A DNA stretch of 64,000 bases. It comes from Candidatus Thorarchaeota archaeon. Its GTDB lineage: Archaea > Asgardarchaeota > Thorarchaeia > Thorarchaeales > Thorarchaeaceae. The notes under the pieces are model-generated. The model worked only from the letters and a program-made list of their open reading frames with translations. It was not told where the DNA came from and did no database searches. The stretch is taken from contig JAGSHN010000016.1 of NCBI GenBank assembly GCA_029855935.1, forward strand, positions 64,001 to 128,000, written 5' to 3'. Both the position numbers and the translations under genes were made by a program. Below are positions 22,620-38,085 of this stretch, one piece after another. The stretch's first letter is position 1. Each line of letters opens with the position of its first letter.

Positions 22620-23852
22620 TCACGGACCGACCACTGCAAGGCTCTTGAGATAGCCTCTTCCTATCTTGAACACCATCGGCAAGAAGTCCGTGAACAATCG
22701 CATCACCGTGGCCACACTGATATGACCCTGCACAATCTCGTTGAGCGTCGCTGCATCGAGCTCCCGGAGTACAATCTCCGCAGCCTCAAGGGGGTCATTG
22801 AGCATCGAATATCTTGACACAGCCCACATCCCCCTTCCGGTATTCTGAATGTTCCACGCAAGCTTTGACCCTCGGTACTCCTTCTCGTACTTGTAGACGC
22901 TTCGTCTGGAGAAGTCGTCCTGTTCCACCATCCTCTGTGCGTGCTGGGCGAGCAGAGATCCCGCGTGCAAGCAGGTGGTGACGCCTCCGCCAACAATCGA
23001 CGAGACCTGCCCTGCTGAGTTACCACAGAGTGCAACACCCGCATCGGTGAATCGTGGTATCAGACCCGCACAGGGGACCACCCCGCCATTGGCGCCCACG
23101 ATCTTCGCATCACGGGTCTCCTCGTGGGTCCTCATATACTTCAGCAGAACCTCTCTCATCGGGGGTAGACTGTGCCACTCGGAGCCCGTTGTTGGCACGC
23201 GTCCGATCCCGAGGTTGACCTCGGTCTCGCTTCGCGGATACAACCAGAGATAGCCAAGTCCCACATCACGCCCAACATAGAAATAGGCAGTCTCGGGATC
23301 GATGTTCTTGCAGTTGGCGAGCTTGAATCTGATGCCATATGAGAGTAGCCACTTTGGGTGAGTGAAACCAGCGGTCTCGGAGACTCGGCTGAAGGATCCG
23401 TCCGCACCAACCGTCAGCGATGCCTTCACAGAATCTGCACCACGGTTGTAGGTCACACCCGTGACCTGTCCGTTGTCCTTGGTCACCGAGTCTACTCTGG
23501 CGCCAAACCTGAACTCCGCTCCATCAGCCACAGCCCTCTCGTACATCAGTTCCTGGCACCTGTCCTCATCGAGCAGGTACGAGTTGCCAAGCAGTCTTCG
23601 GTCCACAGCAATACTTGCTCCGGTGTCGAGACTCGCCCCCACAATGGCAGAGAACTTGTTGCCAACATACTCCGAGTCAGGTCTCACACGGAGAAGCCTC
23701 AATGCCTTGTCGGTGACGAGCTCTCCCATCAGAGAGTCGGTGACCTTTGCGCGCTTCTCAAGAACGACTGTCTTCAGTCCTCTCGCGGCGGCCTGTTCAG
23801 CAGTCTTGAGGCCTGCCGGGCCAGTCCCAACAACGGCGACATCATACTTCAT
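22620..23852 (-). CDS. Geranylgeranyl reductase family FAD-dependent oxidoreductase
   Basis: DVAVVGTGPAG, GADG..S.V, GYLWLYP, GNSAGQV...GGG. Confidence 0.85.
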   Translation of the reverse strand: MKYDVAVVGTGPAGLKTAEQAAARGLKTVVLEKRAKVTDSLMGELVTDKALRLLRVRPDSEYVGNKFSAIVGASLDTGASIAVDRRLLGNSYLLDEDRCQELMYERAVADGAEFRFGARVDSVTKDNGQVTGVTYNRGADSVKASLTVGADGSFSRVSETAGFTHPKWLLSYGIRFKLANCKNIDPETAYFYVGRDVGLGYLWLYPRSETEVNLGIGRVPTTGSEWHSLPPMREVLLKYMRTHEETRDAKIVGANGGVVPCAGLIPRFTDAGVALCGNSAGQVSSIVGGGVTTCLHAGSLLAQHAQRMVEQDDFSRRSVYKYEKEYRGSKLAWNIQNTGRGMWAVSRYSMLNDPLEAAEIVLRELDAATLNEIVQGHISVATVMRLFTDFLPMVFKIGRGYLKSLAVVGP

Positions 23853-23995: not shown

Positions 23996-24853
23996 ATGAA
24001 GGCCCGGACGATTGTCTACGCTGTGTATCTCATTCTATCCATATTCGTGAGCATTACGGTAGCGGCGTTTCCCGCGATCGTTCTGTTCCTGATCTTCTTC
24101 AATCTTATCGACTCTATTGTGGCCAGTGTGATACCTCCTCTCAATCTGATTCGTGATGCGGTTCTGGCGCTACTTGGTACTCTTCTGCCTCAGTTCTTCG
24201 CCGATCACTTCTGGTTCTTTGTGCTGCTAGTTCCGGCGTTGCTCACCTGCTATGCGATATTCTTGGGCATCCTCCTTGTGATGTTCAGACTCTCCCGGCG
24301 AGGTCTTCCCTATCTCGAGGACGGCTACTACCCGATGGAGACAGAGGAGTGGATGCTCTACGAGTTCTACGAGGTCTACTACGTGATCTTTCCGTACTTT
24401 GCGTGGTTCTTCAGCGTCTTCCTTGACACTCGTCCAAGGCATGCTCTCTTTGGTGCAAAGATAGGCAAGAACACGGTCGTGGGAAACGGTCGCCTGTTCA
24501 ATCCCGAGCGGACGATCATCGGTGACAACTGCTTCTTCGGATATGATGCCATACTCAGCGGACACGTCTATGAGGGCGGTCGCCTGTATCTGAAGACGGT
24601 CAGGCTGGGAGATAATGTGACTGTAGGGGCCAACTCGGTCATCCTGCCTGGGGCCGACATAGGCGACAATGTGATCATTGCTGCGAACAGCACGGTGCCC
24701 AAGAATCGCGTCATCCCGCCCAACAGCATCTGGGTACATGGCAAGGCAATCCCTCGCAAGAAGAAGGAGGAGCTGCCTGAAGAGGTGGCAACAGAGCTGG
24801 AGGCCACTCTGCCCGCTGTGGAACCGGAGGACGAAGAGGATGTCGGTGAGTGA
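23996..24853 (+). CDS. Membrane-anchored hexapeptide-repeat (left-handed beta-helix) acyltransferase-like protein
   Basis: N-terminal TM helices; GAKIGKN, IGDNCFFG, LGDNVTVGANSVILPGADIGDN. Confidence 0.85.
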   Translation: MKARTIVYAVYLILSIFVSITVAAFPAIVLFLIFFNLIDSIVASVIPPLNLIRDAVLALLGTLLPQFFADHFWFFVLLVPALLTCYAIFLGILLVMFRLSRRGLPYLEDGYYPMETEEWMLYEFYEVYYVIFPYFAWFFSVFLDTRPRHALFGAKIGKNTVVGNGRLFNPERTIIGDNCFFGYDAILSGHVYEGGRLYLKTVRLGDNVTVGANSVILPGADIGDNVIIAANSTVPKNRVIPPNSIWVHGKAIPRKKKEELPEEVATELEATLPAVEPEDEEDVGE

Positions 24854-24894: not shown

Positions 24895-25311
24895 ATGGCG
24901 GTGGTGGACAGGATGATCCTATTGATGTTCCACCTTGAGAGCTTCTGGTATCGGCCGAACGAGGCTGAGACTGGTGTGCGGGATGAGCACAGGTTTGGCG
25001 AGTCGGTACTCGTCTGGATTCAGGCAGAGGAGCGGGACCATAAGAACCGCATTGCTGTTCTCAGGAAGATGGTCAAGAACATCAAGTGGCTTGCCCAGAA
25101 GGTCGGCTGCAACCGAATCATCCTTCACTCCTTTGCTCATCTTGGCACGAGCAAGGCCGATCCGGAGTTTGCGGATGCTCTCATCGAGGAGGTGGCGAAC
25201 AGGCTGAGGGAGCGAGGTTTTGAGGTTCACATAGTCCCCTTCGGGACGTTTCACGAGTTTGCGATGCACGTGAAGGGCCCCTCCCTTGCAAAGGTGTTTA
25301 AGACATTCTGA
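24895..25311 (+). CDS. Stand-alone archaeal-type threonyl-tRNA synthetase editing-domain protein
   Basis: LLMFH..F.Y, IILHSFAHL, PFG...F.MHVKG.SLA. Confidence 0.85.
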   Translation: MAVVDRMILLMFHLESFWYRPNEAETGVRDEHRFGESVLVWIQAEERDHKNRIAVLRKMVKNIKWLAQKVGCNRIILHSFAHLGTSKADPEFADALIEEVANRLRERGFEVHIVPFGTFHEFAMHVKGPSLAKVFKTF

Positions 25312-26763: not shown

Positions 26764-26864
26764 CTCTCCCGCGCCTAAGACATGAGGCTGCCTCCACCAG
26801 CTGGGCAACGCTCATAGGTCATTATTATTATAAGTGCCATTCAGGGACCTGTCCGTGAATCGCC

Positions 26865-27317
26865 TTGGAAGCAGAGCGCACAGACAATGATCCGATAGTT
26901 GGTACGGGCGTCGATATTGTCCAGATCTCCCGTCTGAGACGGATTGACCTAAAGGCGCCGTTCTATCGGAGAGTATTCACCACCCGAGAGATGGAGTACT
27001 GCAAGAGATTTGACGATCCGCTTCCCCATCTGGCTGGGGTATTCGCAGCCAAGGAGGCTGTCTGGAAGAGTATCTCCCACCTATCCCCTCCCGCTCTCTC
27101 TGGCATAGAGATTCTACACGACCCACCCGGGCGTCCTCAGGTGCATCTGTCCGGCCATGTTGACTGCAGAGTCCATCTCAGTATCTCCCACTCTGGCGAC
27201 TACGCAGTGGCAGTGGCCATTGCCGTCGATTCCGAGATGGGCATCGATGGCGACTATGCGAGCAGGCTCGCGTCGCTCGTCACGGACCTGATCCAGTCGA
27301 AGGAGGTCCCCCGATGA
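26865..27317 (+). CDS. acpS: Holo-ACP synthase (4'-phosphopantetheinyl transferase)
   Basis: GTGVDIV, RVFT..E..YC, LAGVFAAKEA, G.P, LSISH...YAVA. Confidence 0.92.
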   Translation: MEAERTDNDPIVGTGVDIVQISRLRRIDLKAPFYRRVFTTREMEYCKRFDDPLPHLAGVFAAKEAVWKSISHLSPPALSGIEILHDPPGRPQVHLSGHVDCRVHLSISHSGDYAVAVAIAVDSEMGIDGDYASRLASLVTDLIQSKEVPR

Positions 27318-29149
27318 ACGATTCCGCTGACAAGCTCACAACTCTTCTTGAGACGGTCAGACAGGACCCATCGTATCTCAATCTATGGAGTGCGTACCGC
27401 CGCATTCGCGCCATGGGTCTTCCGGAACCCACTGACGAGAAGACCGCCGTCAGGCTTGCAATCATAGGCTCATCTACCCTTGAGCCGCTGGCCGCCTGCA
27501 TAGACGTCAAGATCCGGCTGGAGGGGCTCACCCCCGTGACCTACGTGGGCGGCTTCAATACATTTCGTCAGGAGGCACTGGACAAGTCCTCGGCACTGTA
27601 TGCTCACAGGCCCAATGTTGTTGTCCTCAGTGTTGACGCGTGGTCGCTGCTGAGTCAGACATTCCTTGCCGAGTTTGTCCGAATGGACAAGGCGCAGAGG
27701 GGGCAACATGCCAAGGCGATTGCCAGTGAGGTCATCGATGTTGCTCGTGCCATCGAACAAGAATCATCTGCGCTGGTTCTTGTCAACAACTTCATTGTCC
27801 CCGTGTTCTCCCCTGTCGGCATAGTTGACAGCAAGCAGGAAATTGGTCTGCGCGAGTTCTTCAGGCGTGCCAACAGTCTTCTCGAGGAGGCGTTCAGGGA
27901 CAGTAGCAGGGTCTTCGTGGTTGACCTCGACGCAGTGGCCTCTCAATTTGGAAAGAGGGACACCATAAACTGGAACACGTTCTATCGCGGAGGAATTCAG
28001 TTCAGCGAGTCCTTTATGCCCGTGCTTGCGGACGAGTACCTGCGCTATGTCCGAGCATTGAAGGGCAGGTCGAAGAAGTGCATTGTACTGGATCTGGACA
28101 ATACACTCTGGGGTGGCATAATCGGTGAGGATGGTATCGAGGGCATCCGGCTCGGTCCCACCTCCCCCGGCGCGGAGTACCTCGACTTTCAGAGAGTGCT
28201 TCTCAGTCTGTACAATCGCGGGATAATCCTCGCAGTCAACAGCAAGAACAATCCTGATGATGCCCTCAAGGTGCTGAGAGAGCATCCCTACCAGCTACTG
28301 AGAGAGGAGCACTTCGCAGCACTGAGGATCAACTGGCAGAATAAGGTTCAGAATCTCATAGAGCTCGCTCAGGAGATCAACATTGGTCTCGACAGTATGG
28401 TGTTCATCGATGACAGCCCTCAGGAGCGAGCGCAGGTCCGACAGGCGCTGCCAGAGGTACTTGTGGTCGACCTCCCGGAGAATCCACGACTCTACAGGGC
28501 CACACTCGAACGGCTCAACGTCTTTGATGTGCTATCACTGACCCCCGAGGATATGCGCAGAGGGGAGATGTACGTCGGCAAGAGAAAACGCGCCGAGTTG
28601 CAGCAGAGTGCTGCGTCCCTTGAGGACTTTCTACGGACCCTCCAGCTCCGCGTGGAGATAAAGCTGGCCGACGACTTTGACATGCCACGTGTGGTCCAGC
28701 TGATTGGCAAGACCAACCAGTTCAATCTGACGACCCGGCGCTATACTGATGCCGAGGTGCGCGGGTTTCGTGAGAGCCCTGATGTCCGGGTGTACAGGAT
28801 GGCTGTGAGCGACAGGTTCGGGGACGAGGGGATTGTTGGTGTGGCGATAGTCAGGAGCGAGAAGGACGCTTGGGTGATCGACTCGTTTCTGATGAGTTGC
28901 AGGGTCATCGGCCGGAATGTCGAGACTGCCTTTCTTGCCAAGATAGCCTCTGACGCACGCGAGAACGGTGTCCGGCGGCTGATTGGTGAGTACATCCCGA
29001 CCAAGAAGAACGTCCCGGCGAGGGATCTCTACGAACGACACGGCTTTGAGCTCATCGGTACAGATGAGGACGGTGTCACACGATGGCAGCTCGATCTGTC
29101 GACCTCCACTATTGAGGTGCCAGAATACATAGAACTTGTCGAGGAGTGA
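27314..29149 (+). CDS. fkbH: FkbH-like HAD-IIIC phosphatase/glyceryl transferase with C-terminal GNAT-like domain
   Basis: VLDLDNTLWGGIIGEDG, SKNN, FIDDSPQE, KTNQFNLTT, LMSCRVIGR; ATGA overlap with acpS. Confidence 0.93.
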   Translation: MNDSADKLTTLLETVRQDPSYLNLWSAYRRIRAMGLPEPTDEKTAVRLAIIGSSTLEPLAACIDVKIRLEGLTPVTYVGGFNTFRQEALDKSSALYAHRPNVVVLSVDAWSLLSQTFLAEFVRMDKAQRGQHAKAIASEVIDVARAIEQESSALVLVNNFIVPVFSPVGIVDSKQEIGLREFFRRANSLLEEAFRDSSRVFVVDLDAVASQFGKRDTINWNTFYRGGIQFSESFMPVLADEYLRYVRALKGRSKKCIVLDLDNTLWGGIIGEDGIEGIRLGPTSPGAEYLDFQRVLLSLYNRGIILAVNSKNNPDDALKVLREHPYQLLREEHFAALRINWQNKVQNLIELAQEINIGLDSMVFIDDSPQERAQVRQALPEVLVVDLPENPRLYRATLERLNVFDVLSLTPEDMRRGEMYVGKRKRAELQQSAASLEDFLRTLQLRVEIKLADDFDMPRVVQLIGKTNQFNLTTRRYTDAEVRGFRESPDVRVYRMAVSDRFGDEGIVGVAIVRSEKDAWVIDSFLMSCRVIGRNVETAFLAKIASDARENGVRRLIGEYIPTKKNVPARDLYERHGFELIGTDEDGVTRWQLDLSTSTIEVPEYIELVEE

Positions 29150-29152
29150 ACG

Positions 29153-29395
29153 TTGACGGACGACATTGACGCGAAGATCACCGAGATAGTGTCAAAGGTC
29201 CTGCTGCTGGACGAGGACAAGGTGACCGACACCCTGCGGCGCAAGGAGTACGAACCGTGGGACTCGATGGCGCATCTCATTCTTGTCAGTGAGGTTGAGA
29301 ACGAGTTCGGCATCTCCTTCACCGACGATGAGGTCGTGGAGATATGGACCGTTGGCGACCTTCGGCGGATGGTCACTGAGAAGGTCCATCGCTAG
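29153..29395 (+). CDS. Acyl carrier protein
   Basis: 80 aa, acidic, WDSMAH pantetheinylation motif, E.EFGI, TVGDL. Confidence 0.9.
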   Translation: MTDDIDAKITEIVSKVLLLDEDKVTDTLRRKEYEPWDSMAHLILVSEVENEFGISFTDDEVVEIWTVGDLRRMVTEKVHR

Positions 29396-29858
29396 ACCCG
29401 TCGCTGGCCCGGCGTGTGTCTGGGTGGTCAAGTCTCTGGATCACTCGTGCTGGGTTGCCCGCCACCATCGTCCACGGGGGCACATCACGGCTCACCACGG
29501 CACCCGCGGCCACGATGGCCCCACGGCCAATCCGCACTCCTGGAAGGATGATGGCCCCACTTGCTATCCACGCCCCATCCTCTATGACCACCTTCTTCGG
29601 AGGCTGTCGGTAGGCGCCGCTCATTCTATGGTAGGGACTGGTGCCGGAATGGGCCATTATCTGCACGCCAGGACCGATTGAAACCCAGTCTCCAATCTCG
29701 ACGAGGTCTGGATGCTCGCTGTCAATCTGAACAAGATAGCCCACGAACACACCCTTCCCTATCTTGACACCGCATCTCCTGTGCACGGCCGCTCGGAATT
29801 GCCAGAAGGGTGCGAGCCACGCCAGTATTCTCAGAATCCGCCCCACTATCTTGCCCAT
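29373..29858 (-). CDS. Hexapeptide-repeat acyltransferase (maltose/galactoside O-acetyltransferase-like)
   Basis: GVKIGKG, IEDGAWIASGAIILPGVRIGRGAIVAAGAVV..DVP...VAGNPAR. Confidence 0.88.
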   Translation of the reverse strand: MGKIVGRILRILAWLAPFWQFRAAVHRRCGVKIGKGVFVGYLVQIDSEHPDLVEIGDWVSIGPGVQIMAHSGTSPYHRMSGAYRQPPKKVVIEDGAWIASGAIILPGVRIGRGAIVAAGAVVSRDVPPWTMVAGNPARVIQRLDHPDTRRASDGSSDGPSQ

Positions 29859-29862
29859 CTCT

Positions 29863-30747
29863 CTATCCTCCCTGTGCCATCTGATATCGCCACAGCTGCC
29901 TTCGTAGATAGTCCGAGAAGACCCAGTTGTCGATATCGCCCGTCAAGAGGAGACAGAATGAGGCATCACTGGGCCATCTGCCGTGCGAACGCCACCGAAG
30001 GACGGCCTCGGAGGGGGTTGGTGCCCAGGCTCCACGTCCAATCGCATGTTCGACGGCCCCCTCCAGACAGCCGACGTACCTTTTCTGCCCCATCCTAATT
30101 GGGTGGAGGTCGAACATCAGGACACCGCCTTGTGCCGCTGCGGAATCAATCTCCAGAATCAGACGTTGTGTCACCTGTTCAGGGGTCATCTTCAGTGTGT
30201 CAATCATCCGGTCGTCGCTCCACACGCTGAGAGGGATGTAGGTGACCGACGAGGGTCCTCCCCCCACAGTCACGTGAAAGAAGTGACGGCGCCGACGATG
30301 TTCCGGTCGGTAGCCGAGACCCCCGTCCCAGAGTAGACCTGCTCTCTCAAGCATCTGCGGCATGTCGTCGGTGTAGTTGTCGTAGGGTGCCCTGAAGCCT
30401 CGAACCGTGACACCGAGTTGTCGCAGTGTTCGAAGGCTCATCTGCAGGTCCCTCTCGCGTTCCTGTGCCGAGACGCGCGGATAGCGAATGTGGATGTAGC
30501 CGTGACTGGCGACCTCATGGCCCTCGCGCTCGATCCATCTCGTGAGGTCCGGGCGCATTGCTGCCACTGCAGCGACGACGGGGAAGGCGAATCTTGCTCC
30601 GTGCTTGTCCAAGACATCGAAGGTGTTCGACAGAATCTCCTCGAACGATATCCTGTGTAGTCGGTACATTCTGAGGAACTGAATGGGGGCTCTCAGCCCC
30701 CATCTGTGGAGAAGTTGTCGAACATACTCCGTGCCGGTCAGCATCAC
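29863..30747 (-). CDS. Polysaccharide deacetylase (NodB-like) family protein
   Basis: GHEVASHGY.H, GFRAPY, LHP. Confidence 0.82.
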   Translation of the reverse strand: MMLTGTEYVRQLLHRWGLRAPIQFLRMYRLHRISFEEILSNTFDVLDKHGARFAFPVVAAVAAMRPDLTRWIEREGHEVASHGYIHIRYPRVSAQERERDLQMSLRTLRQLGVTVRGFRAPYDNYTDDMPQMLERAGLLWDGGLGYRPEHRRRRHFFHVTVGGGPSSVTYIPLSVWSDDRMIDTLKMTPEQVTQRLILEIDSAAAQGGVLMFDLHPIRMGQKRYVGCLEGAVEHAIGRGAWAPTPSEAVLRWRSHGRWPSDASFCLLLTGDIDNWVFSDYLRRQLWRYQMAQGG

Positions 30748-30827: not shown

Positions 30828-31739
30828 TCACGGGACGTAGACGAAGGCCGACGCCAGAAGCCGGAGAATCGGGTCCACGAGGCTCCTGTCGAGGTGGCCC
30901 CAGACATAGTTGCACATTGCGATGAACTCTTCCGTGCGGAGCTCAGCATCGGACTTGCCGCCAACAATCTGCTTGGCCATCTTGACAAGCGTCTTCACAA
31001 TGTTCTTTGCATCCCTGTGGTCGCCCAGTATCTTCGTTGTTTCCTGCTCAATGTGCTGGATTCGGCTCTTGATGCGGATGTCTGCAATCTCGTCGCTACC
31101 CAGTGACTTGACGAGGTCCATCAGGACATCGAGTATGCCGTTGTGCAGCCCGGCAATGACCGCCTCCACCTCGTATGCTGTGAAGCGGATTTCCTCTCCG
31201 TCTACGTTCAGCGACCACTTCAGATCGCTGCTTCTGACGAGGTCGAACTGGCGTCCGTCGATGGTTATGTGTTCCTCAAAGTATCTGCTCTCCACACTGC
31301 TCTGAATGGACATCTTGAGGATTGCCGCCTCGGTGACCTTGATCGGTGCTCTCTTGTCGCCGCTTCTCAGCTCCAAGCAGAGATCGTCCTTCGGAGTGAT
31401 CTTTCTGACATAGTCTGACGCAGGCGCGACCTCCACCGGCGGGAGATTCTTCAGAAGCGATGCGAGGTTCCGGACCTCCTCCTCGGTCAGGAGATAGGTC
31501 TGCCTATCGCCTGATATCTTGATGCTACCATCCTCGGTGCGTTCGAAGATGATCTTGTTGCCACCACCCACGTTGGTGGTCTTACGATATTCCTGTCGGT
31601 AGTTGCGCACAGTCTGAGCCAGCTTCTCCAGTGCCGCAGCCACCATATGGGCCTCTCCATACCCTATGGTGATCTCGCCAGCGCTGTCGGTGGCGCGACC
31701 CAGCCCAACAGCTCCATCTCTCCTTATCTTGACGTACAT
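30828..31739 (-). CDS. Hypothetical protein with repeated beta-beta-alpha units
   Basis: Long open frame starting at ATG 31739; four strand-plus-helix units (ITIGYGEAHM, YLLTEEEVRN, PIKVTEAAIL, IRFTAYEVEA). Confidence 0.75.
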   Translation of the reverse strand: MYVKIRRDGAVGLGRATDSAGEITIGYGEAHMVAAALEKLAQTVRNYRQEYRKTTNVGGGNKIIFERTEDGSIKISGDRQTYLLTEEEVRNLASLLKNLPPVEVAPASDYVRKITPKDDLCLELRSGDKRAPIKVTEAAILKMSIQSSVESRYFEEHITIDGRQFDLVRSSDLKWSLNVDGEEIRFTAYEVEAVIAGLHNGILDVLMDLVKSLGSDEIADIRIKSRIQHIEQETTKILGDHRDAKNIVKTLVKMAKQIVGGKSDAELRTEEFIAMCNYVWGHLDRSLVDPILRLLASAFVYVP

Positions 31740-31910
31740 CTTGAGTAACCACTGTGCCAGAGGCCACGGCTGTAAAAAACTGTTGTGACGACGGAGTGTC
31801 CAGTCCATTGCAAAAATGAGTTCTGGAGGAGGTCGGTCCCTCTGCCGCCACTGTGACAGGCGCTCAAGAGGCGGCTCCTCCCACAGAGACTGTTCGTACT
31901 ACTATTGCGA

Positions 31911-32270
31911 CTATATGCCGTCCTTGACATCAAACTTGAGTAGTCCGGCCTCTTTGGTCTTGATTGCAATGTCTATCTTGTGGTCTCCGGGCGATAGCTG
32001 TTCGCCCTCGACCGTGACGACAACCTCTATGCCCACCTTTATCGTGAAGGGGTTGTTCTCCGAGATCTCTGATGCCTTGACCTTGACGTCACCAGACTCG
32101 ATGATTGTCTTCTCCAGCGGATACTCCTTGTCATCGACCTTGAATGGCTCTATGGCGATGGCAGTCCCTGGCGAGAGGGAGTTCTTGATCTTGAACTGGA
32201 ATCCATTGTCCACGTTTGTGAGACTGCCCTTGACGTAGAGCTTTCTCAGCAGGAAGCTTGGTATCTGCAT
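31911..32270 (-). CDS. Small conserved beta-sandwich protein
   Basis: MQIPSFLLRKLYVKGSL.N...GFQFKIKNSL.PGT. From memory it resembles a small domain associated with some HMG-CoA reductases (unverified). Confidence 0.7.
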   Translation of the reverse strand: MQIPSFLLRKLYVKGSLTNVDNGFQFKIKNSLSPGTAIAIEPFKVDDKEYPLEKTIIESGDVKVKASEISENNPFTIKVGIEVVVTVEGEQLSPGDHKIDIAIKTKEAGLLKFDVKDGI

Positions 32271-32446
32271 AGTATCATCGCTCCATATGGTCTTGTGGTC
32301 CTGCATTGACCTGTCGTCTGCAGTTTTTATACGTTCCGAGTGAACATCAACGCTAGGCCCGACTAGTGCCCCCGATCACACAGGTATGACAGAAGGGGGC
32401 GGGCGGACCTCATCACCCGACGCCACGACTGCCGTCTTGCCGTACT

Positions 32447-35400
32447 CTAGATGTCTCCGGGCTTGAGCATCTTGGTACGCGCTTGAAAGATCGGTCCCGT
32501 GATGCCCATTACTATCTTCACAAGATCCGGGTTCTCACTCACAATGCCGATGACGTCACGATCGGCCCCTGACGCTGGCGCGAGCATGACCTCCTCGCTG
32601 TCGATGATGCATGCGTAGAGGTCCTTTTCTCCACGCACCCTGACACGGATGTTGCCTCGGCCGACGAGCGGGCCAGCACGCTCCGCCAACAGTGGTCCCT
32701 CTGTGACGACGAGTTCTACGCCCACCACGGACTTCAGCCCCGTCAACAGATCGGTCGGTATCTCCCGCGGGTCTGGGACAATCATCGTCACCTTCGACTT
32801 GGCGCGCTGGAGCATATCCGCCATGTGGGTCAGCACGGCATTCCGGCCGGACACGAGCCACGTGTTCTTGGCGCCCGGGAACTCTGTCTGACGCAGCATA
32901 TCCTTCACACGAGACAGCATCTCGGCCACATCCTCGGTGCCACTGACAGTGACGGCCCCTGCGAATGTTTCGTCGAGGTACTCGTCGGAGATGCCGAGCA
33001 TAGGCGATGCCTCCGCCTCTTTGAGTAGTCTCTCCAGCGACCCGACTATCCCGTCCACGGTCTTGTTGATGGCGTCGAATCCCCTACCAATGCCCTCCTC
33101 AAGGTCAGTCCGCAGTGTATTCAAGAGACCCCTCGCGCCGTCGATTCCTGCCGCCACCCTATCGCTGGCGGCCTGAGCAAGGGCATCTGCGGTACTCGCC
33201 GCCGATTCTTGGAGTTTCTCGCCGGTGTCTGTGATACTGGAGCGACCGGACTCCGCAGCACCCTCTAGGGCCGTCTTGTGCTTCTCCACGAGCTGGTCGA
33301 CCTGAATCTCGTACCGGTTACTGGCGTGTTCTATCTGGCTGACCATCTCGTCACACTGTGTCGAAATATCACTGGCAACGGACTCCAGTGTGGAGCGGAC
33401 GCCGGACTTCACGGATTCTTCTGTTCTCGCCAGTTGTGTCACTGTTTCAGAGAATGTCTCGGTCAGAGATTCGCTTGCTGTTGTGAGCGACTCGACAGAT
33501 GCCTCTCTTGTCTGCGCCAGACGGTCCTTGGCAGACTCCTCCGCCTGCGACAGCTGCTGTAACATTGCAGCATTGATCTCTGTCATTCGCTCCTTCAAAT
33601 CGGATATGTGACTGCCTATGTCCTCCGCGATGGATGATTTCATAGCTATACTCGCATCTGCAATCCCAGTGCTCAGATTGTTCACCAGCGACTCAGTTGC
33701 ATCGGAGAGTGTCACTCTGGCCTCCTCCGTCGACCTTGAGAGAGTGTCACCCGACATACTGAGGTCTCGTTTCGTGGACGCTACACTGTCGGCAATCGTG
33801 CCTCCCAGCGACTCGAGGATGGCACTCGTCTCTTGAACCATTGAGTCCACGGACTGTCTCGTTGCCATCGCTATCTCACTCTCTCTCTGTTTGATACTCT
33901 CGACGGTGCGCTGGCGTGTCTCGTCAATCTGCTCAATCAGTGATCTGTGAACCTCGCCGACCGTGTTCACTAGCCTATCGAGGTGCTGCGACTGAAGGCT
34001 CAGGCTGTCTGCCACAGTGCTGCTAATGCGGGAGGACATCTCATCGTGACGGCTCCGGTAGTCGGCCAGCCGCTGGGTCATCGAGGTGTCTATTGTCTCA
34101 AGCCGTGTCTTCACAGTGGTCGTGACCTCGTCGATGGCTGACCTTGTCAGATCGTTGACAGTGGACACAGTCTCCTCAACAGCCTGCTCTATCGCCCTCT
34201 GCACCTGCTCTGCCATTGCCTGGACGCGTTCCGCGGCCGAGGATGCAAGCCGCTCCAGTTGTCCGCGCAGAGAGTCCACGACTTGGGTGAGGTCCTGTGA
34301 CAGACTCGTTCTCGTGCTGTCCAGAAGACTTGTAGAGCTGTTGAGAGCCTCACGGTTGAGTTCGGTCAGGCTGTCCCCTAGCTGACGGACCACGGAGTCC
34401 ACATCCTCTTTCAGAGACTGCACCCCCGCCCGCGTCTTCGCATCTGCCTCCTCTGTCGCTGCGGCAGCGCTCTGGAGAAGAGTGGTCCCTGCATCAGCAG
34501 CGACACCGCTCATCGACGCGGCCGCGCCCTCGACGGTCCGTCCCACCTGCCCCGCAAACCCCTCAAGTTGTTGTCCAAGGGAATCTCTGGCCGATGCGGT
34601 GGCCTCTTCGAGACTGTTCATAGTCGAGTCGATGGACTGTCTTAGTGCCTCGATACTCTCTCTCTGTTTCGCATCGTGCTGACTCAGTGCTGTTGTTGCA
34701 CCTTGGCGGAACTCCTCGACGGCCTGTTGCAGGCCCTCATTGAGTCCGTCGACGTGCTCCGTCATACTATTCTGAATCTTGTCCAGAGATGCTATGACTC
34801 CCTCTGTGGTGTCCTTCAGAGTGGAGTCTAGGCTGGACCCCAGCGTGTTGAGTACGTTGGAGATGTCTGTTGCGACCTGTTGCAGTGCCGAGACGGTCTG
34901 ATCACGGGCCGACTCAAGGCTGCCCGTACTATCGCCGGCGGCCGTTTCCACCGTATCGCGTGCGGAGGATATCGTTCTCTCGGTCTCGCTCTCAGCTCTC
35001 TGCGCTAGGCCGTCAACTGATGAACTGACCCTGTCCTTCAGTCCATCAACGCCAACTCGCAGCTCGTTGACAAGATCCTGTCCGCTGCTCTTGGCGGCAG
35101 ATCCCCACGACGTGAGATCAGCAACGAGTGCGCTTGTGGTGCTGCTCAGAGTGTTACGAAGCTCCGCTATGGCCGGCTCTATCTGCTCCGGGAGCTGACT
35201 CTTCCACTCGCCTGCTGCAGTGGCGATGTCACGCGAGACTGCCCCACGCGTGTCCGCCAGAGACGTGATAGCAGTGTCGACCTTTGTGGCAATCTTTGTC
35301 AATGCCTCATCTCTGACTCCTGAGCCCTCTGTTCCTGCCCTCTCCACCTCGGCAATGGCATCCTGCACAGTCTTGACGACAGCATCGCGGACCTTGGTGG

Positions 35401-35707
35401 CAGCATCCCTGACTTGCTGCTTCAGGTCCTCGCGAATTCTAGCTATCTGTTCTCCCACGCCCTGCAGCTCTTGGGCGATGCCCTCGAATGGTGGTATCGC
35501 CTGATAGCGAGGGACAATGCCGGGTACCTTGGTGAGCACCTCCTTTGACACTAGGCCTCTGACGATCTCTTCAGCCTCGTCAAGGCCCACATCCATCATC
35601 AATGCCACGTCGCCGATCGTGAGACTTCCGGTCGACAGTACGAGCGAGTATGCTTTGAACTCTCTCTCATCAAGTCCTGTGATCCTCTGAAGAATATCCT
35701 CAGCCAT
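32447..35707 (-). CDS. Giant TrmB-like protein: wHTH + ~850-aa amphipathic helical region + TrmB/PLD-like C-terminal domain
   Basis: GLDEREFKAY..VL..G.LT...YQAIPP at the N-terminus; W.VSGRNAV..H..DML.RAKSKV and ACIIDSEEV at the C-terminus. Confidence 0.8.
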   Translation of the reverse strand: MAEDILQRITGLDEREFKAYSLVLSTGSLTIGDVALMMDVGLDEAEEIVRGLVSKEVLTKVPGIVPRYQAIPPFEGIAQELQGVGEQIARIREDLKQQVRDAATKVRDAVVKTVQDAIAEVERAGTEGSGVRDEALTKIATKVDTAITSLADTRGAVSRDIATAAGEWKSQLPEQIEPAIAELRNTLSSTTSALVADLTSWGSAAKSSGQDLVNELRVGVDGLKDRVSSSVDGLAQRAESETERTISSARDTVETAAGDSTGSLESARDQTVSALQQVATDISNVLNTLGSSLDSTLKDTTEGVIASLDKIQNSMTEHVDGLNEGLQQAVEEFRQGATTALSQHDAKQRESIEALRQSIDSTMNSLEEATASARDSLGQQLEGFAGQVGRTVEGAAASMSGVAADAGTTLLQSAAAATEEADAKTRAGVQSLKEDVDSVVRQLGDSLTELNREALNSSTSLLDSTRTSLSQDLTQVVDSLRGQLERLASSAAERVQAMAEQVQRAIEQAVEETVSTVNDLTRSAIDEVTTTVKTRLETIDTSMTQRLADYRSRHDEMSSRISSTVADSLSLQSQHLDRLVNTVGEVHRSLIEQIDETRQRTVESIKQRESEIAMATRQSVDSMVQETSAILESLGGTIADSVASTKRDLSMSGDTLSRSTEEARVTLSDATESLVNNLSTGIADASIAMKSSIAEDIGSHISDLKERMTEINAAMLQQLSQAEESAKDRLAQTREASVESLTTASESLTETFSETVTQLARTEESVKSGVRSTLESVASDISTQCDEMVSQIEHASNRYEIQVDQLVEKHKTALEGAAESGRSSITDTGEKLQESAASTADALAQAASDRVAAGIDGARGLLNTLRTDLEEGIGRGFDAINKTVDGIVGSLERLLKEAEASPMLGISDEYLDETFAGAVTVSGTEDVAEMLSRVKDMLRQTEFPGAKNTWLVSGRNAVLTHMADMLQRAKSKVTMIVPDPREIPTDLLTGLKSVVGVELVVTEGPLLAERAGPLVGRGNIRVRVRGEKDLYACIIDSEEVMLAPASGADRDVIGIVSENPDLVKIVMGITGPIFQARTKMLKPGDI

Positions 35708-35965: not shown

Positions 35966-37144
35966 TCAACCCGCGAGCTGAGTGATCCTGCGGACAGTGA
36001 CCCCGCCTGGTATGCCTGTGATGATGACATCTGGCTCCAGGCCAGTCTCCATCTGATATTGCCGACCGACAGCAATTGCAATGTCACGTGCGTCGGACCT
36101 CTCTGCCAGTATCACGACGGATCCCCCTAGACCCGCTCCCGTCAGACGTGCTCCCACTACGCCCCTCTGCTGACGAGCAATCTCTACCAACAGGTCGAGG
36201 TTCGGATGTGACACCTCAAAGAGCTCCTTTGAGCTGCTATGAGACTCGTACAGGAGCTCTCCGAACTCCCTGTAGCGACCGTCTCGCAGGAGCCGAACAC
36301 CGCGTCTTACGCGCTCGTTCTCTCTTACGACGTGTTCGACTCTCTTTCCGAGAGCTGTTCCAACGGTATCGATTGCACGTTCCAGATGCCCGACCCGCAA
36401 TTGACCGAGTGCCGAGATGTCCCATCCTGCTCGTCTCAGGGCGATGACGGCTCTGTCACACTCAATTCTTCGTTCGTTGAGGGCATCACCAGCGGTCCGC
36501 GAGACGCCCGAGTCTATGATCAATATAGCCAGCTCAGGCGGTAGAGCGACATCTGCAGTCTGCATGTTGGCACAGTGGATCTCAAGAAGCGAGTCAGGTC
36601 TGCACAGTTGGGCTGTGAACTGGTCCATGATGCCACATGACACACCGCAGAACAGACGCTCGGCCTCGAAGGCAATCATTGCCAGTGACTTTGGCTCCAT
36701 CTGCAGACCGTTCAGGTGGGCTACGAGGTTTACGATGGCGACCTCAAGGGCCGCGGACGAGCTGAGCCCCGCACGTATGGGGACACTGCCATCAATGACG
36801 GCTGTCATCCCGGTGGTGGGTCTCCCCCGACGCTCAAGGGCCCAGAATACTCCCCGGACGTAGTCGTGCCACTCATTGGTGAGCGCTCTGTGCTGGCCAA
36901 TGTGGTCAAATTCTACGGTCTCGTCGAAGATCAGTGAGCGCACGGTCACACGCTCGGAGGGCACCCCGAGTGCCCAGACATAACGCTCTATTGTGGCTGC
37001 CAACACCAGTCCGCCATTGTAGTCCGTGTGATTGCCAAGTATCTCCACTCGTCCCGGCGCCTGTGCCAGTACCAGCTCGCTGTCCTCCGAGACATCTGTC
37101 AGGGTCTGCAGTTCCTCCAAGAGGCGCGGGACCACTCCGGTCAT
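35966..37144 (-). CDS. galK: Galactokinase
   Basis: APGRVEILGNHTDYNGG, PIRAGLSSSAA, CGIMDQ, GARLTGAGLGG; start ATG 37144 overlaps the galT stop. Confidence 0.92.
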   Translation of the reverse strand: MTGVVPRLLEELQTLTDVSEDSELVLAQAPGRVEILGNHTDYNGGLVLAATIERYVWALGVPSERVTVRSLIFDETVEFDHIGQHRALTNEWHDYVRGVFWALERRGRPTTGMTAVIDGSVPIRAGLSSSAALEVAIVNLVAHLNGLQMEPKSLAMIAFEAERLFCGVSCGIMDQFTAQLCRPDSLLEIHCANMQTADVALPPELAILIIDSGVSRTAGDALNERRIECDRAVIALRRAGWDISALGQLRVGHLERAIDTVGTALGKRVEHVVRENERVRRGVRLLRDGRYREFGELLYESHSSSKELFEVSHPNLDLLVEIARQQRGVVGARLTGAGLGGSVVILAERSDARDIAIAVGRQYQMETGLEPDVIITGIPGGVTVRRITQLAG

Positions 37145-38085
37145 CAGATCGCCTCTCTCAGCTCGTGAGCCCTGTCCTCTGGTAGCGAGTCGTTGGTGTA
37201 CGTCCAGGCACCAGTTTCCACGCCCGCGAGGTACTTCCGTAGTCGTCTGTCGCGCCACGGGGGATACATCTCGACGTGGAAATGCCAGCAGCCCGTCGAC
37301 GGCTTCACTGGGGCGTCGTGCAGGACCATCACGTACGCCAGTTCGTCAAAGACAGCCACATAGCGCCGGACGATGTCCTGTACCATCCGGGCAAGCCCTG
37401 GGAGGAGTTCGCCGAGGTCTGACAGAGACCGCACGTGGCGCCTCGGGTAGATGTGAACCTCATATGGGAGGCGAGCTGCAAAGGGGACGATTGCCACAAA
37501 CTCGTCGTCCTGTGTCACCACTCTGTCCCCCGACTTTAGTTCGCCCTCAATGGTCTGACAGAGGAGACACTCCCCCTCGCTCTTCCAGACCTTGTCGAAC
37601 TGTCTCAGCTCGCGTTCGATTCGCGGAGGGACGAACGGTAGGGCATAGGCCTGAGCGTGGGGATGGTCTAGGCTGACTCCAATGGCCCGCCCCCTGTTCT
37701 CAAAGATCAGGACGTATTCGATGCCATCAATCGACCCGAGTTCCTCTCTCACGCGAACGTACTCCTCAAAGACACGAACCAACTGTTTCTCGTCCATCCT
37801 CTCAATCTGCTCGTCGTGGTTCGGAGACAGCACTATGACCCTGCACTCACCGTATGCCGGTGTCTCCATGACATAGCCCTCGCGCATCGGCAGCAGTCCG
37901 GCGCCAGTGCTCAGAGCGGCGTATCTGTTGCTCAGTGTCAGAACATCCCATCCCTCGGCCGTCTCAGGCTGGCCGGGACAGAACGGGCAGGGGTGTTCCG
38001 GGTCTTGGAACGGCCGCTGAGCGCGTTCCGGTGTCACTATGACCCACTCGCCGAGGAGGGCATTCCAGCGGAGCGTGTTCATCAT
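37144..38085 (-). CDS. galT: Galactose-1-phosphate uridylyltransferase
   Basis: R.N.LLGEWV, R.RP, CPFCPG, FENRG..IGVSL.HPH.Q. Confidence 0.93.
   Translation of the reverse strand: MMNTLRWNALLGEWVIVTPERAQRPFQDPEHPCPFCPGQPETAEGWDVLTLSNRYAALSTGAGLLPMREGYVMETPAYGECRVIVLSPNHDEQIERMDEKQLVRVFEEYVRVREELGSIDGIEYVLIFENRGRAIGVSLDHPHAQAYALPFVPPRIERELRQFDKVWKSEGECLLCQTIEGELKSGDRVVTQDDEFVAIVPFAARLPYEVHIYPRRHVRSLSDLGELLPGLARMVQDIVRRYVAVFDELAYVMVLHDAPVKPSTGCWHFHVEMYPPWRDRRLRKYLAGVETGAWTYTNDSLPEDRAHELREAI

Follow-up and report, generated by a model that had tools for sequence, protein, structure and literature searches.

A five-gene archaeal cassette that pairs a putative glyceryl-carrier module with a deacetylase and a left-handed β-helix acyltransferase: a candidate system for remodelling amino sugars

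Archaea are generally described as lacking acyl carrier protein (ACP) and the enzyme that activates it (PMC3533463). The 64,000-nt stretch analysed here (the window), from contig JAGSHN010000016.1 of a Candidatus Thorarchaeota archaeon, carries genes for both: an AcpS-type 4′-phosphopantetheinyl transferase (PPTase) and a stand-alone ACP are encoded on either side of fkbH, and this trio faces genes for a left-handed β-helix (LbH, or hexapeptide) acyltransferase and a polysaccharide deacetylase, here called Hex161 and PDA294. The locus raises the question of what such a carrier serves in an archaeon. The production by FkbH of glyceryl-ACP out of 1,3-bisphosphoglycerate has been established in polyketide synthase (PKS) settings only (PMC7489565). 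A first-pass annotation of the window proposed a self-contained pathway, with its own PPTase, that transfers glycerate to a surface glycan or a lipid head group. We report here that the five genes form one discrete unit, found in four archaeal lineages, and that this cassette is outside lipid, fatty-acid, PKS and nonribosomal peptide synthetase (NRPS) metabolism. On balance, we think it probable that the cassette carries out a glyceryl-ACP-dependent N-acyl swap on an amino sugar, which is probably lipid-linked.

The five genes fill 3.9 kb (Table 1). The stop codon of acpS and the ATG of fkbH overlap as ATGA at 27314–27317, in agreement with the translational coupling described in the first-pass annotation, and the ACP gene starts 3 nt past the fkbH stop and encodes the WDS motif that the annotation had pointed out. 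On the opposite strand, 4 nt separate the end of the PDA294 gene from the start of the Hex161 gene, and the 3′ ends of the Hex161 and ACP genes overlap by 23 nt. The open reading frame listing and the profile searches thus bore out, for all five genes, the picture of a trio converging on a hexapeptide acyltransferase and a polysaccharide deacetylase.

In a tblastn synteny table compiled over 80 FkbH loci, all loci of sufficient length from Thorarchaeota, Bathyarchaeia and the Heimdall/Hod/Hermod group had the five genes together. A reciprocal search, started from the deacetylase alignment and run over approximately 185,000 species genomes, returned 78 loci, all of them archaeal; nearly all that had enough flanking sequence held the full set, and the search added the Nitrososphaerales, with a fourth gene order. 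At least four gene orders occur across these four lineages. In the Heimdall group, acpS has the deacetylase gene upstream of it, and the LbH gene may stand on either side. The flanks are unrelated housekeeping genes, among them those for PEPCK and Cdc6, for a TYW2 methyltransferase and for a tRNA synthetase. Co-occurrence of the LbH and deacetylase genes with the trio, which had been suggested as a check on the first-pass annotation, was found in shuffled order in approximately 60 genomes (counted per isolate) whose fetched stretch contained the complete set, the remainder being cut by contig ends. In an FkbH tree, the cassette-type proteins formed one clade (SH-aLRT 97), apart from the trio-type clade of bacteria and DPANN archaea, and the Thorarchaeota, the Bathyarchaeia and the Heimdall group were each monophyletic (100, 98 and 100, respectively). 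Labels also clustered by lineage in the trees of Hex161 and PDA294, in which many rows came from records without a lineage name, which limits what the label counts can add.

The limits of the unit were given by genomes that do not carry it. FkbH was found in 39 of 85 genomes of the Thorarchaeal family, and in all four of the fetched genomes that lack it, the helicase gene and the gene for a 326-aa protein, which flank the cassette in the window, stood back to back. At these empty sites (loci L171–L174 of genomes G333, G331, G335 and G369) the order GGR-family reductase, membrane LbH protein, threonyl-tRNA synthetase (ThrRS) editing domain (not at every site), helicase and 326-aa gene was kept. 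Because the FkbH-lacking loci miss exactly five genes, the cassette is a presence/absence unit whose limits match 26865–30747. Across the phylum, FkbH was present in 66 of 400 genomes and in none of the 135 sampled from the largest family, a patchiness that marks the cassette as an accessory trait.

The membrane LbH protein, the GGR-family reductase, the helicase and the 326-aa gene were each considered as parts of the system and rejected, all four being kept at the empty-site loci. The membrane LbH protein was found in 75 and the 326-aa gene in 82 of the 85 Thorarchaeal-family genomes, including genera without any FkbH; like the reductase, they belong to the core gene set of the Thorarchaeota. 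The first-pass annotation had counted the upstream membrane hexapeptide protein and the reductase as context for the pathway; both are present as it described, and both are bystanders. The reductase in particular is independent of the cassette, since it is kept at the locus in four FkbH-lacking genomes.

Feeding of a PKS or NRPS is the sole role of FkbH–ACP pairs that has been established experimentally (PMC7489565), and the trio might accordingly supply glyceryl-ACP, or methoxymalonyl, hydroxymalonyl or tetronate units, to such an enzyme encoded elsewhere in the genome. The source assembly comprises 2.97 Mb in 32 contigs, is 97.3% complete and has an archaeal small-subunit rRNA; the closest relatives of its FkbH (62–78% identity) are all from Thorarchaeota. 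In this genome, the only PP-binding domain and the only ACPS-family PPTase are those of the cassette, and no NRPS condensation domain was found. The ketosynthase family PF00109 gave only weak matches (23–31 bits), to thiolase-like frames of approximately 390 aa, and matches of this kind were also found in every archaeal control genome. Neither FkbK, FkbI, FkbG nor a FabH-like partner was present in the cassette of any lineage compared. The absence of PKS, NRPS and fatty acid synthase genes, which the first-pass annotation had noted for the window, therefore extends to the whole 97.3%-complete genome, and its own suggestion that a PKS or NRPS elsewhere might be the acceptor led to no candidate. 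With one carrier and one PPTase, and neither a condensation domain nor a genuine ketosynthase, this route is closed within the 97% completeness of the assembly, and we regard it as hardly credible.

We then consider what the five proteins are likely to do. AcpS matched PF01648 (9.7e-16; 58.2 bits against a cut-off of 25) and TIGR00556 (74.5 bits against 45.35) and missed the cut-off of the equivalog model TIGR00516 (51.3 against 59.8). The match of FkbH to TIGR01686 (2.1e-97; 326.2 bits against a cut-off of 146.65) spans positions 3–321 of the 323-position profile. In an alignment of seven sequences, D260 and D262 of the HAD motif D260-L-D262-N-T are invariant, and the segment S528-C529-R530-V531-I532-G533-R534 is invariant in all seven; its cysteine lies in the C-terminal domain and is, as in OzmB, presumably the glyceryl carrier. 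The N-terminal half of FkbH matched PDB entry 3SLR, an unannotated Bacteroides structure (3.5e-46), and residues 1–250 were modelled by AlphaFold2 (AF2; pLDDT 92.5) with an SGNH/GDSL fold, which gave VIA Z scores of 22.3 to 3SLR and 12–16 to GDSL esterases, carbohydrate esterases, OatA and PatB, the last two being peptidoglycan O-acetyltransferases. This domain also occurs in FkbH proteins of the bacterial trio type. At the nucleophile position it has Ser53, which is invariant, and the alignment contained no conserved His or Asp to complete a triad. ACP matched PF00550 (1.9e-5; 25.2 bits against a cut-off of 20.8), and W36, D37 and S38 are invariant in 28 orthologues. Because it missed all NCBIfam ACP equivalog cut-offs, it is not an AcpP of the fatty acid synthase type.

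PDA294 matched PF01522 (1.6e-15; 57.6 bits against a cut-off of 23.1) and, below the cut-off, the NodB model (1.6e-11). No signal peptide or transmembrane segment was predicted in it, and the protein is predicted to be cytoplasmic. Its AF2 model (pLDDT 91.3) is a CE4 (NodB-type) barrel, for which Foldseek gave 5e-11 and VIA a Z score of 23.9 to 3rxz; Z scores were 21–24 to the 3rxz/3qbu/3cl6 branch and 19.2 to ArnD, and acetyl-xylan esterases were among the fold matches. Invariant residues include H82-x3-H86, R119-x-P-Y (R119, P121 and Y122), D178/D179, D213-L-H215 and D271/D273. No D-D motif precedes H82, and the canonical order of CE4 motifs 1–5, with TFDD first, was not found. Alignments with SpPgdA run from just past its TFDD motif to about residue 257, and a T269-G-D-I-D273 sequence, invariant in 27 orthologues, follows the last strand at the C-terminus. 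These features fit a circularly permuted CE4 enzyme, in which a motif-1-like strand would have moved from the N- to the C-terminus, as judged from its sequence and secondary structure and from the ranges that align.

Hex161 matched PF00132 (7e-15) and missed all subfamily cut-offs, the best NCBIfam profiles being YvoF-type (73 bits against a cut-off of 300) and WcaF-type (68 against 192). Among structures, it matched PDB entries 3ect, 2ic7 and 1kqa (1e-14 to 2e-18), with 3ect at 1.8e-18, and matches to the LpxA and LpxD profiles were weak (1e-10 and below). His70 is invariant in the orthologues, and the alignment places it one position off the catalytic His of the family. With 55–89% identity across the four lineages, and 55–65% between phyla, Hex161 is the most conserved protein of the cassette. 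By these matches, we place it among the LbH enzymes in the maltose/galactoside/WcaF/YvoF branch.

Considering these assignments, we postulate the following sequence of reactions. AcpS would convert the apo-ACP of the cassette to holo-ACP, as its family suggests. FkbH, whose family and catalytic motifs are read from the sequence and whose substrate is suggested by characterised FkbH enzymes, would take 1,3-bisphosphoglycerate, remove the phosphate with its HAD domain, hold the glyceryl group on Cys529 and pass it on to give glyceryl-S-ACP. PDA294 would strip the N-acetyl group from an amino sugar of the N-acetylhexosamine (HexNAc) type, and Hex161 would then move the glyceryl group from ACP to the freed amine, yielding an N-glyceroyl hexosamine. 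We infer the donor, the acceptor and N- rather than O-acylation alike. The underlying logic, acetyl out and ACP-bound acyl in, would be that of NodB/NodA/NodF and LpxC/LpxD.

The trio itself is more widespread than the cassette. Homologous AcpS-FkbH-ACP trios, in the same order and with FkbH 40–46% identical, were found in bacteria, Woesearchaeota, Methanosarcinales and Nitrosotenuis. There, the companions of the trio are a MaoC dehydratase (in 16 of 23 loci), an SDR protein and a 699-aa Antibiotic_NAT/DUF4910/HTH protein, in neighbourhoods with NeuB, a CMP-transferase, DegT, a UDP-N-acetylglucosamine (UDP-GlcNAc) 2-epimerase and GT4, that is, in nonulosonic-acid or other sugar loci. At these 23 loci, tblastn found no homologue of Hex161 or PDA294 except for three LbH matches of 36–39% identity. 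The MaoC/SDR loci suggest that nonulosonic or amino sugars there bear a lactyl-like C3 acyl group, one that has been dehydrated or reduced. Since the trio has other partners elsewhere and stands in sugar loci, it appears to be a general sugar-decoration module, of which the archaeal five-gene form is one variant.

Evidence linking the cassette to N-glycosylation came from lineages other than the Thorarchaeota. In 14 genomes of Bathyarchaeia and the Heimdall group, the gene immediately next to the cassette is that of AglB/STT3, the oligosaccharyltransferase of N-glycosylation, and at least three arrangements occur. In Bathyarchaeia, it is divergent from a VOC gene in one subclade and upstream of acpS in another, and in the Heimdall group it lies upstream of the deacetylase gene or, in one genome, directly downstream of it. 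No lipid-synthesis gene was found to travel with the cassette. YvoF-type and WcaF-type enzymes act on polyprenyl-linked acceptors, and the substrate of ArnD is an amino sugar that is linked to a lipid at the cytoplasmic face. Given that the cassette proteins are cytoplasmic, that ArnD is among the CE4 fold relatives and that the matches of Hex161 are of WcaF/YvoF type, a polyprenyl-phosphate-linked acceptor is our best guess; the presence of AglB beside the cassette in other lineages, taken with the lipid-linked molecules on which the nearest LbH and CE4 relatives act, points to an N-glycan precursor. The acceptor would thus most likely be a sugar in a glycan that is attached to polyprenyl (dolichyl) phosphate at the cytoplasmic membrane face and is bound for AglB-dependent N-glycosylation. 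The most specific form of this proposal, that Asgard, Bathyarchaeial and Nitrososphaeral archaea use 4′-phosphopantetheinyl carrier chemistry, which other archaea hardly possess, solely to swap N-acetyl for glycerate on a dolichol-linked N-glycan hexosamine, we hold only tentatively, as somewhat short of probable. At locus L157, AglB lies 150 bp after the CE4 gene, with the other cassette genes out of view.

A different acceptor, such as a glucosamine- or GlcNAc-bearing archaeal lipid head group, UDP-HexNAc or a small soluble metabolite, would agree with the housekeeping surroundings of the Thorarchaeal and Nitrososphaerales cassettes, where no glycosylation gene was in view, with the predicted soluble, cytoplasmic nature of all five proteins and with the occurrence of the homologous bacterial and DPANN trio in nucleotide-sugar and nonulosonic-acid loci. 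It would leave unexplained the adjacency of AglB in 14 genomes and at least three arrangements, the chance of which, for a gene present in one to a few copies per genome, is by a rough estimate approximately 1% per independent arrangement; moreover, no lipid-synthesis gene co-travels and the neighbouring GGR-family gene is cassette-independent. We therefore consider such an acceptor quite unlikely.

Several points weigh against the proposed swap. The chemistry of every member of the cassette clade is a prediction, and we know of no FkbH-like enzyme outside PKS systems that has been shown to use 1,3-bisphosphoglycerate. The predicted complex of a Hex161 trimer with ACP scored 0.58, against 0.00 for the best of three controls, with runs agreeing in at least 89% of contacts and a partner pLDDT of at least 84. 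Of 80 solved complexes, 58 reached the mark used for such predictions, as did 2 of 110 mismatched pairs, and among those reaching it, scores of 0.60 or less were given by 7 of the 80 solved complexes and by both mismatches; the prediction was graded as weak support for an interaction and, to that degree, for hand-over of the acyl group by ACP. Since LbH–ACP complexes (LpxA– and LpxD–ACP) have been solved, the score may only reflect likeness to them.

The nearest characterised relatives of Hex161 (maltose-, galactoside- and WcaF-type) are acetyl-CoA-dependent O-acetyltransferases, not ACP-dependent N-acyltransferases, so that the bond made may be an ester rather than an amide. Hex161 could O-acylate a sugar hydroxyl with glyceryl, the CE4 enzyme acting as an esterase or deacetylase at another position, to free a site or to trim and regulate the decoration, with no N-acyl swap taking place. 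All of 3ect, Maa, the galactoside acetyltransferase GAT, WcaF and YvoF are O-acetyltransferases, and the CE4 family includes the acetyl-xylan esterases that appear among the fold matches of PDA294. We nevertheless judge O-acylation unlikely, because the strict pairing of the CE4 gene with the ACP module in four lineages is most simply explained by coupled removal and addition, and because PDA294 keeps the His-His and Asp pattern typical of metal-dependent de-N-acetylases.

The additional SGNH-fold domain of FkbH, for its part, could handle the acyl group itself. In that case, Hex161 would be an ordinary acetyl-CoA acetyltransferase having no more than its target in common with the module, and glyceryl would leave ACP through the SGNH domain, as a transferase or thioesterase, or through an enzyme encoded elsewhere. 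The fold that the domain shares with GDSL esterases, OatA and PatB, the invariance of Ser53 and the retention of the domain alongside bacterial trios, where Hex161 is missing, are in keeping with such an exit; the lack of a conserved triad His or Asp, the conservation of Hex161 between phyla above all other cassette proteins and its weakly predicted contact with ACP make it improbable.

Two further points against the proposal concern its reach. In the source genome, AglB is on another contig (C14), and it was not near the cassette in any of the 32 Thorarchaeal isolates compared, which means that the glycan link is borrowed from other lineages. In addition, nearly all Bathyarchaeia, many loci of the Heimdall group and some of the Thorarchaeota have a sixth gene next to the cassette, encoding a VOC/Glyoxalase_4 protein. 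It is absent from the source locus, the sole match in the genome being 34% identical and on contig C19, and the product may therefore differ between lineages. We take this protein to belong to the methylmalonyl-CoA epimerase family and speculate that it could epimerise C2 of glyceryl-ACP. With these reservations, replacement of N-acetyl by ACP-borne glyceryl, with Hex161 as the transferase, is the reading we prefer. The proposal made in the first-pass annotation is thus partly supported: a self-contained system with its own PPTase, with the LbH enzyme and the deacetylase as partners and, on comparative evidence, a glycan or lipid-linked sugar as target, has held up, and the upstream context has fallen away.

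The remaining features of the window are collected in Table 1. A DEAD/ResIII helicase gene and the gene for the stand-alone ThrRS editing domain, which is missing from some relatives' loci, lie between acpS and the genes for the membrane LbH protein and the GGR-family reductase. The membrane LbH protein has several N-terminal transmembrane helices and matches TIGR02353, the Pls/PosA-type NRPS terminal domain (5.7e-15, below the cut-off). On the other side of the cassette, several matches to the 326-aa gene in other genomes have in-frame stops near the N-terminus, and the true start is probably later. The small protein with the HMG-CoA reductase N-terminal domain is kept beside it in Thorarchaeota. 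Further downstream, the galactokinase-like and uridylyltransferase pair represents sugar activation of the Leloir type, with no shown link to the cassette.

Table 1. Coordinates of the cassette, of its neighbours in the window and of features at related loci (locus numbers precede the coordinates where these are not in the window).
Feature	Coordinates	Strand or side	Remarks
GGR-family reductase	22620-23852	upstream	
Membrane hexapeptide (LbH) protein	23996-24853	upstream	
Stand-alone archaeal ThrRS editing domain	24895-25311		PF08915, 1.5e-35
TATA-like box TTATTATTATAAG, candidate promoter of AcpS-FkbH-ACP	26822-26834	+	read off the sequence; 31 nt 5′ of the AcpS start
AcpS-type PPTase	26865-27317	+	150 aa, TTG start; PF01648, TIGR00556
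Long-form FkbH	27314-29149	+	611 aa; TIGR01686, PF21211, TIGR01681
FkbH SGNH/GDSL-fold domain, residues 45-250	27446-28063	+	AF2 model, VIA comparison
FkbH HAD-IIIC domain, residues 254-377	28073-28444	+	TIGR01681, 4e-21; DLDNT nucleophile motif
FkbH GNAT-like C domain, residues 430-611	28601-29146	+	inside the TIGR01686 match (254-580); marginal PF00583
FkbH Cys529 codon, SCRVIGR motif	28898-28900	+	invariant in alignment
Stand-alone ACP	29153-29395	+	80 aa, TTG start; PF00550
ACP attachment Ser38	29264-29266	+	W36-D37-S38 spans 29258-29266
Hex161, LbH acyltransferase (MAT/GAT/WcaF type)	29373-29858	-	161 aa; PF00132
PDA294, CE4 (NodB-fold) deacetylase	29863-30747	-	294 aa; GTG 30747 or ATG 30744; PF01522
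326-aa protein	30828-31808	downstream	no Pfam or NCBIfam match
Small protein, HMG-CoA reductase N-terminal domain	31911-32306	-	PF25653, 3e-23
1086-aa protein	32447-35707	-	weak ZorA-like/coiled-coil profile matches, 3e-10, far below cut-off
Galactokinase-like (GHMP) and galactose-1-phosphate uridylyltransferase genes	35966-38085	-	end-to-end overlap
AglB beside cassette	L049:5664-7904, L052:11948-14212, L064:3891-6059, L157:7002-9185		
VOC/Glyoxalase_4 gene, examples	L049:5109-5510, L061:3208-3624, L030:11529-11933		
Bacterial, Woesearchaeota, Methanosarcinales and Nitrosotenuis trio loci	L065-L093		

With the cassette, several major archaeal lineages, among them close relatives of eukaryotes, have retained a carrier system that is used neither for lipids nor for secondary metabolites. 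Should the proposed swap be correct, archaeal ACP would have a defined physiological role, a glycolytic intermediate would be linked directly to surface-glycan chemistry, and Asgard surface glycoproteins would carry a mass signature of HexNAc + 46.005 Da, from a HexN-glyceroyl residue of 249.085 Da. As the cassette is small and self-contained, its heterologous expression is feasible without a cultured Asgard archaeon. Bacterial nonulosonic acids are known to bear N-glyceroyl groups, the genes for which were described in 2017 as unidentified (PMC5378307), and the cassette would, on the same condition, offer candidate genes for N-glyceroyl sugars.

Among the closest known systems are the FkbH/OzmB-type loaders of methoxymalonyl-ACP and tetronate pathways, with which the cassette shares a full TIGR01686 domain, the HAD DxD motif, the conserved Cys, a discrete ACP encoded adjacently and, presumably, the conversion of 1,3-bisphosphoglycerate to glyceryl-S-ACP (PMC7489565). 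It differs from these pathways in having no dehydrogenases, O-methyltransferase, FabH-like enzyme, PKS or NRPS, and its FkbH differs from those loaders in its SGNH-fold N domain, its LbH and CE4 partners and its archaeal host. In pairing a cytoplasmic CE4 enzyme with a dedicated ACP, the proposed donor of the replacement acyl group, the cassette resembles the NodB/NodA/NodF system of Nod-factor synthesis, whereas its transferase is an LbH protein instead of NodA and its acyl group would be a C3 hydroxy acid instead of a fatty acid; NodA, NodC and NodE were absent from the cassette genes and their flanks, and the resemblance is one of logic only. De-N-acetylation followed by N-acylation from an acyl-ACP by a left-handed β-helix trimer is the course taken by LpxC and LpxD; the cassette would do the same with a CE4 fold rather than LpxC, with a transferase of MAT/GAT/WcaF type and with another acyl group. 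ArnD, which deformylates undecaprenyl-phosphate-L-Ara4FN, and the PuuE/HP0310/3rxz branch of CE4 have their fold in common with PDA294, which is 16–22% identical to them and, unlike them, has no N-terminal motif-1 strand and carries its T-G-D-I-D strand at the C-terminus. Chemical precedent for glycerate in amide linkage to sugars of the cell surface is found in the N-glyceroyl nonulosonic acids of Tannerella forsythia (Pse5Am7Gra) and Vibrio vulnificus, and in the di-O-methylglyceroyl-Pse of Campylobacter, which belong to another class of sugar and to other organisms than the cassette. A partial literature search found no published account of the five-gene cassette. Its component families and the remove-then-add logic are already known, and the five-gene combination is a variant of them.

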